From Laetmonice hystrix (Eukaryota), in contig OZ249436.1 in assembly GCA_965235115.1 (NCBI GenBank), positions 37,946,001-38,010,000 on the forward strand: 64,000 nucleotides of DNA, written 5' to 3'. The notes beneath the pieces were generated by a model. It made no database searches. It was not told the origin of the DNA and worked only from the letters and a program-made list of their open reading frames with translations. Position 1 is the stretch's first letter, and each line of letters begins with the position of its first letter. Below are positions 8,397 through 64,000 of the stretch, one piece after another. The position numbers and the translations under genes are program-made.

Positions 8397-9709
8397 GTAG
8401 GCCTACATGTATAAGTGCCTCTAAAATTATGCATAAAGCGGAAGATTGTTTTGGATATATCAATATAAACACGCATTTTTGAGCAAGCTATATGTCAGCT
8501 TATGTAATTGTTATAACGTTTTTATCTCAATGAAATGAGGTGGGAAGACTTTGGGGAATTTCTATAAGATTGTATTGAAATTGACTTCATTCAATTAGTG
8601 ACATATAGCAGAAAACGGATTTTGTTTACCGCATGATCGAGTCTCTATAAACACATCCCATGTCTCACATGCAGTGTTCAGCGTTTCTTTCGAAATATAT
8701 CGGTCAGCGCTTGTTCTCTGAGGTCACAAGTGCACATGTAGAACGCACCTTGCTGACCCCCTGGGAACATGGACGAAAAACATGTTCCTTCTCGGAAGCT
8801 GACGTGTTCATCCCGTGAAGGCTCGGCGGGTGTCGTCAGTGTTTTACAAAGGTGGCGCGCAAACAATAAACACACTCATTATTATAAGGCCACACCGTTA
8901 ATTCTGGCACCTCTCTCGGACCGGGAGGGGGGAAGGGGGGGGGGGTGATTAGAATAAACTCCCGGAAGGCAGGTATAGCGTACTTGCGGTTTTTTTTCTT
9001 AGCTGGGCAAATAATTCGGAAAGTATAGGCCTCCTTTATAGGAAGTCAAACATAAGCTATACATGGCACATTTCACATCCTTCAAGTGACGTTTGTTTGT
9101 ATGAGCTCATGTGATCATTTGTAAATTTAGCCGAGGCTTTCAAGAGAACAACCCGAACGAAAACGTAAGAGTTGGACTTCCAGTGCGTTCACTTGGTAAC
9201 ATCATTTCAGACAGGAACTACAGTATAAAGGGTCTATGTATATTGTCTTGATCTTGGAAAATCAATGTCTTTGAGCGGCAGCGCCTTCCAGTGCCGAGGT
9301 TATATTTTTCAATGGCGCCAAGCCATGTACACTTCCAGAGTGCAATAAAGTTATCAATGTGAATTGGCGATGGATGTTCAGATGGGAGTTTGTCCCAATG
9401 GTGACGCCCACACTAAAAACAGGAAACATGTATACATGTTGTTCATATACATCCTGTCTGTGATTTGGGGAGAGTGGGGGGGGGGGGGGGGGGAGGAGGA
9501 CGGGGGGGGGGGGGGCTAGGTCTGCCAACCTCAATCGTTTTAAGGGACCGTGACGTTAGAATCACAATTTGCCGGTGGCGGAGCCATGCAAGCAGCCTGC
9601 GATACGGGTGGGACGGCCACGGTTGACGCACGCTAACGACGGGGGCCGCTTAAAGAGGGTTCACTCATCCGTGACGGGTCGGGAGAAAAACTCGTCATGG
9701 CGCACTTCA

Positions 9710-9835
9710 ATTGGTGCGATCACGTAAATTGACAAGATAATTGGTGCGACCAACGACCCGGTGGGTGCGCTCCGGGTGGGAACATAGTTCACACAACATA
9801 TAAATAGAGGACGTTCGCCCTGTAGGCAAGCAGTT
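9710..9835 (+). promoter_or_regulatory. Proximal/core promoter of atonal-like gene A
   Basis: ATTGGT-N12-ATTGACAAGATAAT (9710-9741), GTGGGAA Su(H)/CSL-like site (9776-9782), TATAAATA (9799-9806) and an Inr-like GCAGTT about 31 bp later (9830-9835); about 210 bp upstream of the first ATG. Confidence 0.65.
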
Positions 9836-10043
9836 AGAAAACGCACGTGGACAGAAGCAGACAGCTTTTTTTGAAGCTTCTAAAAATTGGCAGGCATCGA
9901 CTGATATACGTTGTTCACTGAAGAACTCTTGCCAATATAGACGCCTGGCGGTGACAGCGGTGTGACAGAACACACGACTTGATACGAAAAGCAGAAACAT
10001 TAGGATTTATTTTTCCACGTTGATAAAATTGACCAAGGCCGTG

Positions 10044-10793
10044 ATGTCACTACCGATGTTAATGAGCTCCACACAGGCCACGTTGTCGGGGTTTGAACTG
10101 TACGTCAACAGTCTCAGCATGGACGCCGTGGTGATGGGGGTCGACTCCCCGGCCTGGGAGGACACGGAGGACGGCGACCCTACCTCGTCCTCCCCGTACG
10201 GCAGTTACTGTAGCCGGGGATCTCCCTGCTTCACCGACACCACCTCGGAGGGCGACGTGGAGAACCTAGACCTAGACGCTCTCACCTCGCCTGGAGGACA
10301 CGTCAACACCCCGCGCGGGGCCGTGGAGGAGTACGTTTCGAGTAGGATGAAACATTTCCTCCAGCAGTCCAAGCCCGCCGGCCCCGTCACCGCCGTCACC
10401 GCCGCCGCCAAGGGCTCCGACACCCCGGCCGGTCAGTACGGCAGGACCCGCCCCGCCGGCGGCTGTGGCGGCACCGCCGGCAGCACTGACGAGAACAACC
10501 GACCGTGTCCCTTGAGGAAGATCACCGGCTCAGGGAGCATCTTCAAGAAACAGTTACCTAGCAACAACAACCCCACCAAACCCCCGTCCAAGGATGTCCT
10601 CCGAAAACGACGCCTGGCCGCCAATGAACGAGAGCGGAAACGAATGCACAGTTTGAACGTGGCCTTCGACCGTCTCAGACAAGTTGTACCCGGACTGGGC
10701 GGAGACCAACAACTCTCTAAGTACGACACCCTCCAAATGGCGCAGAGTTACATCAAAGCTCTTCAGGATATCCTGGACAAACCTTTACCCTGA
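10044..10793 (+). CDS. ato: Atonal-family proneural bHLH transcription factor, paralog A (249 aa from first ATG, intronless CDS)
   Basis: C-terminal b[56 protein letters not shown] matches the atonal/Atoh1/Atoh7 signature (RRLAAN.RER.RM..LN.AFD.LR...LSK..TLQMAQ.YI). The track start at 10020 is TTG; the first ATG is at 10044. Confidence 0.95.
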
Positions 10794-11089
10794 AACAGAC
10801 CGGTGAGTTAGGTCGACTCGTACTTTACACTTCTATCACACTGACGCAATCGTCTCTATCATAGAGACTGCCATTAATGAATTCCATGGTGCTGGCAGGT
10901 GTCTCTATAGTTGGGTACCGTATAGAGACCTTCACGTTGACGAGACCGATCGGTGCCGTAGACCCCGGGCCTCCTCCGGCCTGAAGACCATCTCCACCGT
11001 ACAGGGCCCTGCCACCCGACCCCGTCCATGGTGTACACGGCCGGGCCCCCTGACATCACCACCATCCCCTGGGTTCACCGAGTTACCCT

Positions 11090-11247
11090 CCACCTCGCCA
11101 CCAGTGGTCACCCGGCACCTGGTCCAACTCGCTACCAGTGGTCACCCTGTACCTCGCTACACCTGGTCCAACTCGCTACCAGTGGTCACCCTGTACCTCG
11201 CTACCAGTGGTCACCCTGCACCTGGTCCAACTCGCTACCAGTGGTCG
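11090..11247. repeat. Mosaic short tandem repeat downstream of atonal A (probable 3' UTR)
   Basis: Interleaved modules TCGCTACCAGTGGTCACCCTGTACC and CACCTGGTCCAAC. Confidence 0.85.
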
Positions 11248-12199
11248 CAAGAGGCACACACAGAACATTGGGTAACTCAATGTGTGACGATACCTTTCAA
11301 TGACGAGGTAAACATACACAACTGACGGTAGAGAATCACTTTAGTATATAAGATATCATGGTCGTAGAGAGAGCGCTGTGATCGCCTCTATAACTGACGG
11401 TCAGTAATGAAAACACCGTTAGAAGTTATAAAAATGTGCAATACGTCCAAGGTAAGTGCATTGTAGAACATGCACCTAGACACATTGTCAACTGTATCAA
11501 TGCAATTTGTATCATATTCACGTGTAGCATCGAAACTGTCAGGGACACCACAATACATTAATTGTGTTTGAGATCTCAACTGTTTATTTCCTATACTGAT
11601 GTTAGAAATATTCACGAAGAATTGACTGTGTTATTATGTTGAGCTGTGGTATGTGGTCTCATGGTCACCATGAGCTCACAAAGATGTGGAGCCCGCGGCC
11701 AATATCATATCTGCGACACCTATAATCTATATACATCAGTATAGATATAGGCCAGCAGATTTCATCAAGTGCTACAGGTCTCCATCCATGTAAAATTCAG
11801 CATTATTTATATATGTACATATATGTTATTATCTAGGTTTGTAGTATAATGGTATTATTTGTATGGCTGGTCCATAACAAAAGTGACATTACTTATAAAA
11901 CGACCATCAACACCATGGAATAAACGACACAATATTCCAATATCTCCGTGCTGAACGATGTGTATAATGATGGGAAAATGCTGTTGTATATAAAAGCACC
12001 GCAAGATAAAAGTGTCACTTGAAAATATTGTTAGTTCACAGCTGCTTGACAAAGATCCGTTCAGGTTCCATCTGTAGATATATAATAAAGTAAATTGTAT
12101 CATACACGGAAGAAAGAACATTTGTGTTTGAGTGGTTTTCTTGTGGTCTCCAAGGTTATAATACCAACCACATAATGGTGGTCCGAAACATTAACCGTA

Positions 12200-25019: not shown

Positions 25020-27689
25020 ATGGATCTCGACATAATGATAAACAAGACACCTAATACATCCGTCCACTTTGAAGAAAATGGGGACGCTGCAGTGAACGTG
25101 TCAGTAATACTCAGTGTCTGTCTCTTGATCAGTTGTACGGTTTTCGGAGGTGCAGTTAGCCTATCTTCGTTAATAACCGTGGCGCGGAAACCCATGATTT
25201 CTAAGTCTTTTCCTCTGGCTGTGAACATATTGATGATAAGCAGCATTTCGTGTCTCACGGCCGCTCCGGTGGAACTGATGAATCTGATGCTATCTTGGTT
25301 TGCCTCTTCACATACACCACTTTGTCTGCTCTCCGCCGTACTTCGGGCACTTAGGGAATGGCCGCTGTACGTCAGCCTCGTTGGTATCTCGATACAGAGG
25401 GCACGCTGGCTGAGGACAACTTTCGGACAAAAACCGGGAAGGAGGTTCGAGTTCATTGCCATCGTAATCTCTTGGATTTCTCCTCTTCCTCAATTAGTAC
25501 CATTCGTACTGTCAGCATCCGCGAGAACAACTAACCTGCCATTTTGTTCACACATTAAGCATCATGAGTCAATTCAGCGTAGCCAGGCCATACTGTCCCT
25601 CGCGGGAAGCGTTCTGACAAGCGCTAGCATGGCAGCGTCCTACTGGTGGGGCTTCAGATTGGTGAAACTGAGAAACCCCGCTCGTACCCGGACGGTCTCT
25701 TCTGCATATAGGATTCCACCAAGGGACTCTCTGATCCCACGATTTCTAACTGAAACTCAAATGCCTCCAAGTAATCAAAAAAGATCCACACAAACCGAGG
25801 ATGAAACCCCACGTAGGCGGACTAGCCTTGAAGTAAAAACAAGCGTTGACACCCTACCTCAAAAGCCTGCATTGAAAGTTGAGCGTCGTCATAGATCTAG
25901 ATCTATATCGGAACTTCGACGACGCAGCAGCTTAGACATCTCCACAATCTACTCTGTTCGTCGTGATCGTATCACTAGTGGGAAGATGTTCAGCATTCCT
26001 GGATGTGTGGTAACAGACGAAGATCTAAACACCAACACAACAGCATCGGACAGCGAGTCCATCAGAGAAGGCCAGCGTATGAGGGATATGTGTTGTCCAC
26101 CCCTCGCGGAAACAGTTCAATTCGAAGGTCCATGCTGTAACTCGAGCGGCAATGCTACAAGTAGCAGGACAAACAAAATACTCACTGAGAATTTCACGCA
26201 AGGGGCCTGTCAACACAGAATATCTAGCATGGAGTGTCATAATTCAAGTGTTGGGTTTAGTGTATCAGACAGTGTTAACTTATTAATGGCACCGCAACTG
26301 CTGACGATTGACAAGGACTTCACGGAATGTATGTCTCGTAACAAAACATCGCAGTGTGCTACAAGGGCCACATACTCCAGGAAGGGAAGTTTCTCGTCAG
26401 CGTCCTGCATTTCTGATGTTTCTATTTTTACCGGTAGAGACAGCGGGAAGTGTAGCCTTAGGTCTTTCTCCACATCATTCCTAGAAGATAGCATATGGAG
26501 ACAGACAAAGTTCCTGGCTGACGTCGCTGTCAACCTAGGCCAAGGTATACGTGGCCAGGAATCACTCAATGAAACAACCGAACGCAAAGGTAGCAAAAGT
26601 AATCCACATCGCAGAAAGAGTGAAATCGCCATAAAAAGCAAGTGTCGCTGGAAAAGGAACAAGAAACATGTCAAACAATGCCGTTCTGTCAAAGGTCCGT
26701 TGCATGAAACGTTGGTCGCAACCACTACTCTCCTGACCACCCAGAATCTGCCCCCTTTATGGCACAAACGTCGGAACGCAAGTGGACTTCACAATGGTGA
26801 ACTCTGCTTGGATACAGACTCCCTTCACCAATTCCCCATTGAAGAACGCGCAGAAACTTGTGGCATACAGACGACAATATTCCACATGGGCGAAACCCTT
26901 AAAGACGCTATAAAACATATAGATTCTCCTTCAAAACCAGCAGCTCGCTGTAGCTCTTGGTCAACCTCTGCCAATGAAATATCGGCTTCGGGGATTGATG
27001 TGTATTACAAACCTGAGAACGAGGCTGTGACGTCCCTGCCTAAAACTCGTGAGATTACGTTCCAAAGTCATCGAGAAAATGCAAGCAGGAAGTCGGCCAC
27101 ATCTGTGTTTTTCGATCTGGAGGAAGAACGAAAGCAGGATAAACCTACATATGGTATAAACGAAGAACGGCCGCCATCCACAAACGATGAACATAAAAAT
27201 ATGATGCTGTCTAAAGCATCGAACAGGCAGGTTCAGTATGAAGGAGAGGGAACTTATGATTTAGATCAAACTGGCAAACAGTTAAAATCTTGTAGGCAGA
27301 AAACGTCAATGGCAGCCGAAGAAGGAATAATAGTCGCCCAAGGGAAAAGTTCCAATACAGGAAGAGAATCCAAAGGAAAGCGCCTGGTTTCAAAGACAGG
27401 TCTGAACTTTGTTAGAAGACGAATCTCTGCTGCCAAACTCAAGGCCGTAGTATTAACTATGTACTTTGCACTGACGATGCTTCCAGAAGCAATCATCAGT
27501 GTATTTTTCAACAATTCAGCACCTGGCATTGTACTACGCTCACTAACGTTTGTCAGTTACGCACTAAATCCCATTGCATACATTTCAAGCCACTCTGGGA
27601 TCAAAAAGATGACAGTCAGCATAATGCCGGAGATGAGACGTCACGATGACAAAGTTATTACGTCAGTGGGTCATGGCGGTCGTTACTAA
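25020..27689 (+). CDS. Atypical orphan class A (rhodopsin-like) GPCR, 889 aa, single coding exon, very long ICL3
   Basis: 2.7-kb uninterrupted ORF; N-terminal NxS/T sequons; five hydrophobic helices, then a long polar region, then two helices. Landmarks: Cys at the top of TM3, ISIQRA at the DRY position, TM4 Trp/Pro, ECL2 Cys, TM5 Tyr, TM6 MLP, TM7 NPIAY (NPxxY). Confidence 0.82.
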   Translation: MDLDIMINKTPNTSVHFEENGDAAVNVSVILSVCLLISCTVFGGAVSLSSLITVARKPMISKSFPLAVNILMISSISCLTAAPVELMNLMLSWFASSHTPLCLLSAVLRALREWPLYVSLVGISIQRARWLRTTFGQKPGRRFEFIAIVISWISPLPQLVPFVLSASARTTNLPFCSHIKHHESIQRSQAILSLAGSVLTSASMAASYWWGFRLVKLRNPARTRTVSSAYRIPPRDSLIPRFLTETQMPPSNQKRSTQTEDETPRRRTSLEVKTSVDTLPQKPALKVERRHRSRSISELRRRSSLDISTIYSVRRDRITSGKMFSIPGCVVTDEDLNTNTTASDSESIREGQRMRDMCCPPLAETVQFEGPCCNSSGNATSSRTNKILTENFTQGACQHRISSMECHNSSVGFSVSDSVNLLMAPQLLTIDKDFTECMSRNKTSQCATRATYSRKGSFSSASCISDVSIFTGRDSGKCSLRSFSTSFLEDSIWRQTKFLADVAVNLGQGIRGQESLNETTERKGSKSNPHRRKSEIAIKSKCRWKRNKKHVKQCRSVKGPLHETLVATTTLLTTQNLPPLWHKRRNASGLHNGELCLDTDSLHQFPIEERAETCGIQTTIFHMGETLKDAIKHIDSPSKPAARCSSWSTSANEISASGIDVYYKPENEAVTSLPKTREITFQSHRENASRKSATSVFFDLEEERKQDKPTYGINEERPPSTNDEHKNMMLSKASNRQVQYEGEGTYDLDQTGKQLKSCRQKTSMAAEEGIIVAQGKSSNTGRESKGKRLVSKTGLNFVRRRISAAKLKAVVLTMYFALTMLPEAIISVFFNNSAPGIVLRSLTFVSYALNPIAYISSHSGIKKMTVSIMPEMRRHDDKVITSVGHGGRY

Positions 27690-38163: not shown

Positions 38164-38431
38164 GGGTGGGTGGGTGGGTATTTGGGGTTTTACGCCTTGC
38201 AACAGCCAGGGTCATATCACGGCGGTGAAGATGATGATGAAAGTCAGTTTTTCTTGGTGGAGGAAACCGGAGTACCCGGAGGAAACCACCGACCATCGGG
38301 AAGGAACTGACTGACAAACCTTTCACACATGCAGCCCAGGCCGGGGATCGAACCCGGATCGCAGCGGTGTGAGGCAATGGTCCTAGGCGTCATGAGCCAA
38401 CACCTTAGACCATTCGGCCACCCGAGGCCCC
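38164..38431 (-). mobile_element. Full-length tRNA-derived SINE with V-domain-like core
   Basis: Minus strand: A box GTGGCCGAATGG, B box GGTTCGATCC, core GGTTTCCTCCGGGTACTCCGGTTTCCTCCACCA, (ACCC)n tail; 12-bp TSD CTCAGAATGGGT at 38152-38163 and 38432-38443. Confidence 0.92.
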
Positions 38432-49003: not shown

Positions 49004-49672
49004 CTAAGAGACCGGATCCCTGTTTAAAAGTTCATTCAGGGCATTGATATAACTTTGTGCCATTTGAAGAGTTTCGTATTTAGATAACTTCCTGTCGTTA
49101 CTAAATGACGGCACCACCTCACGGAGCTGATCAAAGGCGACGTTCAAACTGTCCATCCGGCGTCTCTCTCGAGCGTTCGCTGCCAACCTCCGCTTCTTCA
49201 AAACTTCTTTTTGTGGTTGTTTTGGCGGGCCCCGCTTACGTCCGTGTCCCGTACTTCTCGACCGTTTCTTGTCCCCCGTATCCCCGGATTTTTTAATGGT
49301 GGAGGCCGCCGACTCCCGCTTCCGTTTCGCCCGGGCCGTACTGCCGCTGTGTCCGGAGGCCGTGGAGGAGATCTCCCCGAGGTCCTGGGGCAGCAAGCCG
49401 CCCAGGGCGCACGACTTGCGGGGTAGCGATACTCCTCGCATCGGATCGACATTCTCCGCTGACGACGGCGACCCGAGGCCGAGGCCGGGACCGAACCCGC
49501 CGGCGGCCATCGACTGCATTGTCTGCGGGAAGGGGATGGTTGCCCTCAGCGGGATGCCTACCGTCCCCGCGCCCGAGGCGTCGGCGGTCGCCGGCTCGTC
49601 CCTCGACGATGGCGGGTAGCTCGGGTACTGGCTGGCCAGACTCCGACAACTCATGTCAAACTCGGTGAACAT
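49004..49672 (-). CDS. ato: Atonal-family proneural bHLH transcription factor, paralog B (222 aa from first ATG, intronless CDS)
   Basis: Canonical atonal/Atoh1-type b[60 protein letters not shown]. The track start at 49729 is GTG; the first ATG is at 49672. Confidence 0.96.
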
Positions 49673-50139
49673 TCTGAACGGTTTGGTCGTACTCACATAC
49701 GGCTCCCTACAGGTGATAACGCTCGCCACAGATGCCTGTAGGAGGGGGATATATACGGGCCCTGTGCCCTCAAAAGGCCGTCGCCTCTGGTTTCCTCGAT
49801 GGCCTTACAGCATAACAACTATCGGGGAGCCACACACGTGTTGTTAAGATCCTCTCCGGGCCCGTCGTCACACAACACTGACCAAGTGTTGCCGTCCTCC
49901 CGCGGTCTCTCCCCGGCGATCGTCCACCACTCACCGAGCTATACGAAATCTGTATCCACAACCGTCGATACAAACAACTCGTTCAAATCACTCTCGTCAT
50001 CGCCGGCCCATACACACAGACACGGGTCCAAGTCAAAGTATAGTTTTATAAACTCGGAACAGAAAAAAACGTTCTCCAAGAGAATGCCGGTCGACTTGGC
50101 TCACTCGATGGAGTTGTAGCGTTGATGTACATACACATT

Positions 50140-50240
50140 GTCTCCCTATATACAGACACAGGACTTGAGTTTTTATAGCGTCTCTCCCCTTGAGATGGGG
50201 CGCGCCTCATTATCTTGTCAATCCGGTCGGCTCGACCAAT
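50140..50240 (-). promoter_or_regulatory. Proximal/core promoter of atonal-like gene B
   Basis: Minus strand ATTGGT-N12-ATTGACAAGATAAT (50240-50209) followed by TATAAAA (50177-50171); same composite motif as gene A. Confidence 0.65.
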
Positions 50241-50804
50241 CAACGGCCGCCTCTCATGGACTGGGTCGCTTCGGTTCGCTGAACAAGAAATCAATTTGAA
50301 AGTGAATTGCTTGTTTATTGTAACATCCACCCCAGATCGTAAAATGCACCCATACACCAAGATGAACTCTGAAAAAAAACTATGACTTCAGACTCTACGT
50401 GAACACTTAATATACCTGAAGCTAATTGCTATACTCAAATGCGCAGTGGCCTTTTAAATCATTCGGCGCCTTCCCTTTAGAAGTCTCATTAATTATATCA
50501 TGATTCATCATGTATAAGATGTAACAGGTTGGAGATAACCGAAATATTGTAAAGTCCGTTCCTTTCTTTGTACAGCAGGGGCATAGCCAAGGTTTTTTAA
50601 CCCCCCCCCCCCCCACACACACACACTTACCATAATTATACCGTAGAATACATGTACTTTGTTATATTTGTAACATTTGGACTCCCAGAAAGAGGGGGTA
50701 GAGAAAGTTTGATAATGTATTAGGTTTTTTTGTAAGGCAGTACACATTTATATTGAAGCCATTCGTGTTATAACAGTGTTATTTGATAACGGAAATATGT
50801 AATC

Positions 50805-62275: not shown

Positions 62276-62857
62276 CGAGCGTTTGAGATTGAGAACAGTG
62301 ATCCAGCGCCACCTGCCGTGCCTTGCGTGTCAGAACACGTGCGTGCGTTTGTCCGTGTGGTCACACGTGGTTTGCACGACACCTAGAGTCAATAACACGT
62401 CTATCAAATAAATATTCATTAAAGAGTCTCTGAGAAGTCGTTAGAAGTTCTTTTGTCTTTGTAAATAGAAAAGGACTGAAAATTTTCAAACATTATAACA
62501 GTCTTCACAAAATATTCAGTTTTATTGATCCCTTTGATCTCTACTGCTCATATTTCATATTAATATCTTTTATATTGAAAATTGAATCCAGCTCAGTCAC
62601 TGCACAGTCGGGCTGTCGGCCGGCACAGGTTGACCGATGGACGCGGCGGCAGGGTCTCAGCCCGGGACCCCGGGTCCCCGGGTCCCATGCAGGCCGGGAG
62701 GCGGACAGTCGGCCAGGCCAGGTTGACCCATGGACACGACGGCAGGGCCCCAGCCCGGGATCCCGAATCTCCGGGGCCCCAGGCCGGGAGGCCGACTGTC
62801 GGTGGGGACAGGTTGACCCATGGACCCACGGTCTCGGGTCGGGAGGCGGTCACCCCC

Positions 62858-63027
62858 GGGCCCGGTTTCAGAAAGGTTAGCATGATATAACTTAAGCTCT
62901 GCTTAGCCTTTTAGGACCCCTGATTGGCTGGTCCTCTGCTGCTCAGCTTCAACCAGCCAATCAGAGGTCCTAAAAAGATAAGCAGAGCTTAAGTTAAGAT
63001 CATGCTAACCTTTCTGAAACCGGGCCC
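62858..63027. mobile_element. Palindromic MITE (170 bp), PIF/Harbinger-like termini
   Basis: Near-perfect arms of about 75 bp: GGGCCCGGTTTCAGAAAGGTTAGCATGAT... / ...ATCATGCTAACCTTTCTGAAACCGGGCCC. Confidence 0.85.
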
Positions 63028-63064
63028 AGGTCACCAGGCCGGGAGGCGGACAGCCGGCCGGGCC

Positions 63065-63399
63065 GCGTAATTTTTTTTCCCACATTAGTTCCGGACCCCA
63101 TTCTAGCTTCAGCCAATCAGTGAACGCCAGACTCTATCGCTCGCGATATGGGACCGAACAGTGTCAGTGAATGTTTCTTATTGACATTATCTACTGCTCA
63201 TCAATTAGTGCCTATTTAACAATAATTTTGGGCTATGAAAACTAACACTAACCCTAGGCCTAACCTTTACCCTAACCCAAACACACTGTCTCGCATCTCG
63301 CATGTCGTCGCCGGTATTCCATAGCCATATGTGTGCCTGTTTCTGATTGGCTGTATGATAATGGAGGGTCCAGAACTAATGTGGGAAAAAAAATTGCGC
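63065..63399. mobile_element. MITE with about 34-bp TIRs and perfect 9-bp TSD (Mutator-like)
   Basis: TIRs GCGTAATTTTTTTTCCCACATTAGTTCCGGACCC / GGGTCCAGAACTAATGTGGGAAAAAAAATTGCGC; TSD GGCCGGGCC at 63056-63064 and 63400-63408. Confidence 0.9.
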
Positions 63400-64000
63400 G
63401 GCCGGGCCAGGTTGACCCATGGACACGACGGCAGGGTCTCGGCCCGGGACTCGCGGGTCCCAGACCGGGAGGCGGGCAGCCTGCCGGGCCAGGTTGACCC
63501 ATGGACACGGCGGCAGGGTCTCAGTCTGGGATCCCGGGTCCCCAGGCCGGGAGGCGGACAGCCGGCCGGGCCAGGTTGACCCATGGACACGGCGGCAGGG
63601 TCTCAGTCTGGGATCCCGGGTCCCCAGGCCGGGAGGCGGACAGCCGGCCGGGCCAGGTTGACCCATGGACACGGCGGCAGGGTCTCAGTCTGGGATCCCG
63701 GGTCCCCAGGCCGGGAGGCGGACAGCCGGCCGGGCCAGGTTGGCCCATGGACACGGCGGCAGGGTCTCAGTCTGGGATTCCGGGTCCCCAGGCCGGGAGG
63801 CGGACAGCCGGCCGGGCCAGGTTGACCCATGGACACGGCGGCAGGGTCTCAGCCCGGGACCCCGGGTCCCCAGGCCGGGAGGCGGACAGCCGGCCGGGCC
63901 AGGTTGACCCATGGACACGGCGGCAGGGTCTCAGCCCGGGACCCCGGGTCCCCAGGCCGGGAGGCGGACAGCCGGCCGGGCCAGGTTGACCCATGGCCAC

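Follow-up and report, generated by a model that had tools for sequence, protein, structure and literature searches.

The promoters of two atonal-family genes in a 64-kb window (the whole stretch of DNA analyzed here) share a short element, and the match between them is real and beyond chance. The element consists of ATTGGT, a 12-base spacer, and a 14-base core. Exact copies of this spaced pattern, claimed in the earlier note from inspection of the letters, lie at 9710-9741 on the plus strand, upstream of gene A, and at 50240-50209 on the minus strand, upstream of gene B. Allowing up to three mismatches, the window holds no further copy; the chance expectation is a mean of 0.01, and 0 of 100 shuffles reached two copies. 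The core alone, with up to one mismatch, returned the identical two sites, against 0.07 expected by chance. In post-hoc controls, when 1-kb pieces of the window were paired at random, 0 of 135 pairs attained the two-block score of 20 seen for the two promoters and 1 of 135 had a 14-mer in common; 0 of 150 shuffles reached either. Contigs from three runs of one sample cover the gene A motif, and their agreement with the assembly confirms its sequence; none of the 19 variant sites listed in 8600-11400 falls inside 9710-9741, a count from one sample that has no power to show constraint. The element was likely inherited from an ancestral gene. Its reading as an inherited promoter element, at which a Meis/Pbx-type TALE factor is predicted to act beside an ANTP-class homeodomain protein, has in our judgment about an even chance of being right.

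Both ORFs are intronless (Table 1), with a Pfam HLH domain and atonal-type residues, and their named database matches are mostly atonal-, amos-, or lin-32-like; we assign both to the atonal bHLH family on these sequence features. They are arranged tail-to-tail, with about 38 kb between them. The earlier note had seen little similarity outside the shared module, and alignment agrees: the two proteins can be aligned over the bHLH region only (67% of 70 aa), and the 10-kb regions around the genes likewise align in the bHLH only. Gene B groups with L001-L003, three atonal loci on public metagenome contigs, with which it has 89% identity in the bHLH core and a GxPL.ATI motif in common. Gene A groups weakly with the atonal gene of the annelid Malacoceros (93/71, not firm). 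The tree does not unite it with L024, L032, and L038 (p-AU 0.41 when forced together), and a sister relationship between A and B is compatible with the tree test (p-AU 0.086). The spacer, described in the earlier note as divergent, is indeed so between A and B (1 of 12 bases identical) but is not free to vary, since the gene A spacer is identical to those of L024, L032, and L038 at 8, 7, and 7 of 12 positions. It is from this identity and the tail-to-tail layout, not from the tree, that we take gene A to be orthologous to the L024 group.

Several other features of the window may be recorded here. The presumed 5' leader of gene B (49672-50150, minus strand) is about 470 bases long, has several upstream ATGs, and contains a second TATAAAA at 50050, so that transcription may start elsewhere or the leader may hold an intron. 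Between the atonal genes, 25020-27689 (plus strand) holds an intronless ORF of 889 aa without a Pfam match, whose ESM Atlas look-alikes are rhodopsin-family GPCRs (0.91-0.94) and which seems to contain a very long intracellular loop; tblastn found no match to it among the best 80 of 152 atonal loci. At 62855-63030 and 63056-63408 lie two adjoining MITE-like foldback elements, both within a GC-rich tandem repeat region; their terminal inverted repeats are long (93-97%). A weak tRNA-like sequence at 38331-38429 on the minus strand (Rfam 29.7 bits; tRNA-His, anticodon atg, by ARAGORN) is probably a SINE head or pseudogene.

Table 1. Features of the two atonal genes and their promoters, in window coordinates.
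Feature	Position	Strand	Remark
Gene A (P0001), intronless atonal-family bHLH ORF	10044..10793	+	249 aa
Gene A ATTGG half	9710..9714	+	flanks poor for NF-Y, nearer homeodomain-type AATTGG
Gene A 12-base spacer	9716..9727	+	partly conserved with L024, L032, and L038; GATC and G.AA in register
Gene A 14-base core ATTGACAAGATAAT	9728..9741	+	TALE half-site plus GATAA/TAAT
Gene A MEIS1-DLX3 CAP-SELEX seed TGACANSNTAATTG	9730..9743	+	exact fit
Second ATTGGTGCGA, at gene A only	9740..9749	+	10-base repeat of 9710-9719; overlaps core end
Gene A TATA box	9799..9805	+	begins 57 bases past motif
Gene B (P0002), intronless atonal-family bHLH ORF	49004..49672	-	222 aa
Gene B TATA box	50171..50177	-	begins at 50177, 31 bases past motif; 45 from core start, as in L002
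Gene B MEIS1-DLX2 CAP-SELEX seed TGACANNNTAATKR	50207..50220	-	fit
Gene B 14-base core	50209..50222	-	from window scan
Gene B Pbx/Meis decamer-like site GGATTGACAA	50215..50224	-	8 of 10 to TGATTGACAG; matches GAnnGAC; decamer from the available part of PMC6023610
Gene B reverse CCAAT box TGATTGGT	50235..50242	-	complete RRCCAATSR match

Public metagenome contigs were scanned for atonal alignment, and the best 80 of 152 loci were used. Removal of 12 loci whose bHLH region was identical to another and of 26 with fewer than 1000 bases upstream left 42 testable loci. In a scan of related upstream regions, a check that the earlier note had proposed, the core with up to one mismatch lay upstream in sense orientation at 5 of the 42 (L002, L024, L032, L038, and L039), with no antisense and no downstream occurrence; 60 shuffles gave a mean of 0.05 and a maximum of 1. 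The complete spaced form is present in three (L024, L032, and L038), which we treat as one lineage because about 260 promoter bases can be aligned among them. Counted by lineage, the core is therefore found at gene A, gene B, the L024 group, L002, and L039. On one contig, L038 (A-like) and L003 (B-like) stand tail-to-tail, matching the layout of the window. When the gene A region is compared with L024, L032, and L038, the element is the sole non-coding match at E values up to 0.5. It is a stretch of non-coding DNA that homologous genes in distant species have in common, with position and orientation retained. This recurrence bears out the earlier note's proposal of an old element tied to atonal promoters.

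The promoter alignment within the L024 lineage (L024:3319-3576, L032:2577-2834, L038:3288-3551) takes in another conserved block immediately 5' of the element, and a second common non-coding block about 2 kb downstream (L024:5718-5823, L032:6437-6542, L038:6454-6560) is a candidate 3' enhancer. A 37-base match between window 9251-9285 and L003 (E 0.015-0.46) was set aside as chance, being at another position and absent from the remaining core-bearing loci.

Judged by the groupings of genes A and B, the animals concerned are probably annelids or at least spiralians. RATTGACA occurs upstream in 7 of 9 loci grouping with spiralian sequences versus 1 of 32 others, a comparison in which groups and pattern were picked post hoc, the loci are not independent, and the L001 match is not a positional counterpart. 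Among the 32 other loci, mostly arthropod-like, ATTGACAAG was not found; GATTGAC alone occurs in 8 of the 42 loci, which is not above shuffles (mean 4.2, maximum 10). Viral contigs and prokaryote genome contigs yielded no atonal loci. Two loci, L012 and L023, are placed with bivalve genes on firm support (100/98). Of the element they retain the decamer alone, in its full Pbx/Meis form at L023; at L012:2580-2626 and L023:3335-3380 a forward CCAAT comes 31-32 bases after it, so that TALE site and CCAAT box are laid out differently there. L039 has 17 bases identical to gene B at the element. Its top database matches are mostly arthropod (63-82%, bHLH only), and a search with its N-terminal region returned only L039 itself and two low-identity partial matches. 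In the tree it stands beside amphioxus at 91/87; the value falls to 56 in a smaller, quickly built tree, in which an arthropod grouping scores equally. Its bHLH core is nearest by identity to amphioxus ATOH1 (84%, among the named sequences compared).

Comparison across these promoters identifies the core as the stable unit, because the first half of the element and its spacing vary by lineage. The gap between ATTGG and the TALE site is 12 in five promoters (gene A, gene B, L024, L032, and L038) and 15 in L002; it is also 15 in L001 and L003, measured from a degenerate AGTGG, and L039 lacks the first half altogether. These values do not support the fixed spacing proposed in the earlier note. 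At L001:2800-2830 and L003:3554-3584, both B-type promoters, TGAGTGGAT replaces the CCAAT box and lies 15 bases before TGATTGAC. The placing of the module some 30-60 bp before a TATA box stands at both window genes (Table 1). Measured from the core, the TATA box lies at 45, 45, and 42 bases in the B-type promoters (gene B, L002, and L003), at 71, 65, 63, and 63 in the A-type promoters (gene A, L024, L032, and L038), and at 168 in L039. About 33 bases beyond the gene A TATA box is an initiator-like CAGT.

The identity of the two halves is likewise uneven. Gene B and L002 match the NF-Y consensus, given as RRCCAATSR in the available part of PMC11802806. The four A-type promoters (gene A, L024, L032, and L038) depart from it and have the word AATTGG; the earlier note's assignment of ATTGG to NF-Y is supported for gene B, not for gene A. 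GAnnGAC is present at gene B, L001, L002, L003, L012, L023, and L039 and missing from the A-type genes (gene A, L024, L032, and L038). In relatives, the corresponding position holds Pbx/Meis decamers that are perfect or nearly so, which supports TGACA as a TALE core; binding of a TALE factor at the core is in our view probable. The 3' part had been read as a GATA core, and as written this reading is not supported. Of 7 promoters with the core, 5 have WGATAR/AGATAA whole, the exceptions being L002 and L024; L002 breaks GATAA yet keeps TAAT, L024 breaks both, and L001 and L003 have lost the entire 3' half. The pattern TGACA-NNN-TAATKR fits gene A, gene B, L032, L038, and L039, fits L002 in part, and is broken in L024.

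This arrangement of TGACA, three bases, and TAATKR resembles a composite of MEIS and DLX sites. Published CAP-SELEX seeds include MEIS1_DLX3 TGACANSNTAATTG, MEIS1_DLX2 TGACANNNTAATKR, and DLX1_MEIS3 NTGACANNNTAATTRN (in the available part of the PMC12119339 supplement), and MEIS2 and DLX5 co-bind mouse forebrain enhancers at spacings of 2-4 bases (according to the available part of PMC11088997). The DLX3 seed is exact at gene A; among the 7 promoters that carry the core, TGACANNNTAATKR fits 5 (gene A, gene B, L032, L038, and L039) and TGACANNNTAAT fits 6. The half read as GATA therefore suits the MEIS1-DLX composite no less than it suits GATA. The composite was defined with human and mouse proteins and enhancers, and the present case is an invertebrate proximal promoter known from sequence; the atonal site also differs in overlapping a GATA word and in being broken in L024. 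Since many TALE composites exist, a post-hoc fit to one of them is easy, and the MEIS-DLX fit is a lead, not proof. A homeodomain partner instead of GATA is, on the substitutions and seeds above, slightly favored. This choice depends on one locus, L002. Against the TALE-homeodomain reading as a whole stand the lack of the Pbx half at A-type genes, the breaks in L024, L001, and L003, the tree results for gene A, and the GATTGAC count across the 42 loci. In the fly antenna, Dong and colleagues reportedly found in 2002 that Distal-less and homothorax are required for atonal expression.

Two known systems offer further comparison. The DECA-CCAAT composite, bound by PBX/PREP, NF-Y, and Sp2, reads GAnnGAC-11bp-CCAAT on one strand, with spacers of 10-12 tolerated in models (available parts of bioRxiv 10.64898/2026.02.16.706105 and PMC6023610). 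Like it, the atonal element pairs a CCAAT box with a TALE site of the GAnnGAC type at a distance of roughly one helical turn, clearly so at gene B and L002. Unlike it, the atonal TALE site is reversed, lying on the ATTGG strand at a gap of 12 or 15, and the A-type copies satisfy neither GAnnGAC nor RRCCAATSR. Membership was rejected because the TALE half is inverted, which also means that the 11-base spacer cannot be compared with 12 or 15 here; the two are alike, no more. Closer in kind are the Precambrian conserved segments of Frith and Ni (2023; PMC10735318, as available), which are short, non-coding, and retained in position and orientation at developmental transcription-factor genes, also contain CCAAT and MEIS/PKNOX sites, and sometimes occur at several paralogues. 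They differ in being vertebrate-anchored and longer than the atonal element, and the word "atonal" is absent from the available main text and supplement. In that supplement, a Six1 enhancer of lancelet and velvet worm has a MEIS site adjoining ATTATCT, the words of the atonal core in reverse order. Further comparison literature comprised available parts of PMC4889920, PMC7489019, and the PMC12119339 main text.

In the mechanism we propose, a single atonal gene carrying the element would have given rise to the tail-to-tail pair, with selection keeping the element in both copies. The 5' part of the core would serve Meis/Hth as a TALE-class site, whose 5' half would also take Pbx/Exd at B-type genes, and three bases after it the TAAT core would receive an ANTP-class, Dlx/Dll-like homeodomain partner, the gap equaling the spacing of cooperative MEIS and DLX binding in vitro. 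Factors bound 45-70 bases before the TATA box would allow regional homeobox factors to turn on a proneural gene, and we infer that the element's role is activating. ATTGG would act as an additional, less strict site, read by NF-Y at B-type genes and more probably by a homeodomain protein at A-type genes.

Other explanations must be weighed against this one. That the match is a chance one or a piece of a common repeat is very improbable: a 14-mer was common to one random window pair, but the pattern occupies two sites in 64 kb, both atonal promoters, and its recurrence at atonal promoters elsewhere largely refutes the idea. Somewhat less remote, yet improbable, is an A/B identity that is not ancestral, produced by gene conversion between the paralogues or by convergent gain of sites. 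Short sites can arise repeatedly, both window copies have ATTGGT and a spacer of 12 as opposed to 15 in the relatives of B, and the tree does not join gene A with its presumed orthologues. Conversion or convergence must nevertheless account for a spacer that differs almost wholly between A and B yet resembles that of other species at A, for a core that other animals carry at A-like as well as B-like genes, and for the lack of any second non-coding tract common to A and B. Among outgroup species, Capitella and Lingula each have one atonal gene (PMC5381572, Table 1, as available).

The remaining alternatives concern the factors. The model of the earlier note, a stereo-aligned NF-Y, TALE, and GATA module requiring 12-base spacing, is unlikely. 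In its favor, the spacing recurs across the L024 lineage and both window genes, AGATAA is whole in most core-bearing promoters, and NF-Y and TALE proteins are known partners (PMC6023610, as available). It conflicts with the opposite orientation of the published GAnnGAC-11bp-CCAAT, of which the window holds 0 canonical sites at spacers of 10-12, with the spacer of 15 in L002 and its absence in L039, with NF-Y flanks that fail in 4 of 4 A-type promoters, and with the broken GATA word of L002; a search by six names found no GATA-MEIS pair in the available supplement file 8 of PMC12119339. Slightly less likely again, a core of 14-17 bases may be read by another factor or composite, the textbook sub-motifs being incidental; candidates are a single long-site factor, homeodomain-TGIF TAATTGACA, Onecut-TALE, and Fox-TALE. 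The bases identical between gene B and L039 exceed the needs of degenerate seeds, the A-type AATTGACA is similar to TAATTGACA composites, and the conserved GATC of the A-type spacer is assigned to no factor; against this, substitutions in L001, L003, L012, and L023 shift toward the canonical decamer, as Pbx/Meis binding predicts.

Overall, the element is a real, conserved, and apparently undescribed feature of atonal promoters, made of known kinds of site, with a putative function. No description of such an atonal/Atoh element was found in the literature searched, which largely excludes subscription journals, and the exact 14-mer, in either direction, appeared there in one plant paper only. 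A bolder extension, which we consider a long shot, is that the core is an ancestral bilaterian atonal promoter switch: L039 would then belong to another phylum, the element would link Meis/Hth, Pbx/Exd, and Dlx/Dll directly to atonal in sensory territories, and vertebrate-anchored screens would have missed it because arthropods, and perhaps vertebrates, lost it.

Atonal genes initiate sensory-neuron programmes across animals. A 14-base site in both paralogues and in other species provides a concrete point at which to test the factors that activate atonal in spiralians, and the element itself names candidate regulators, Meis/Pbx together with a Dlx-like homeodomain protein. The pair also offers a case of paralogous promoters in which the core is retained and the site beside it has diverged, resembling an NF-Y box at gene B and a homeodomain site at gene A.
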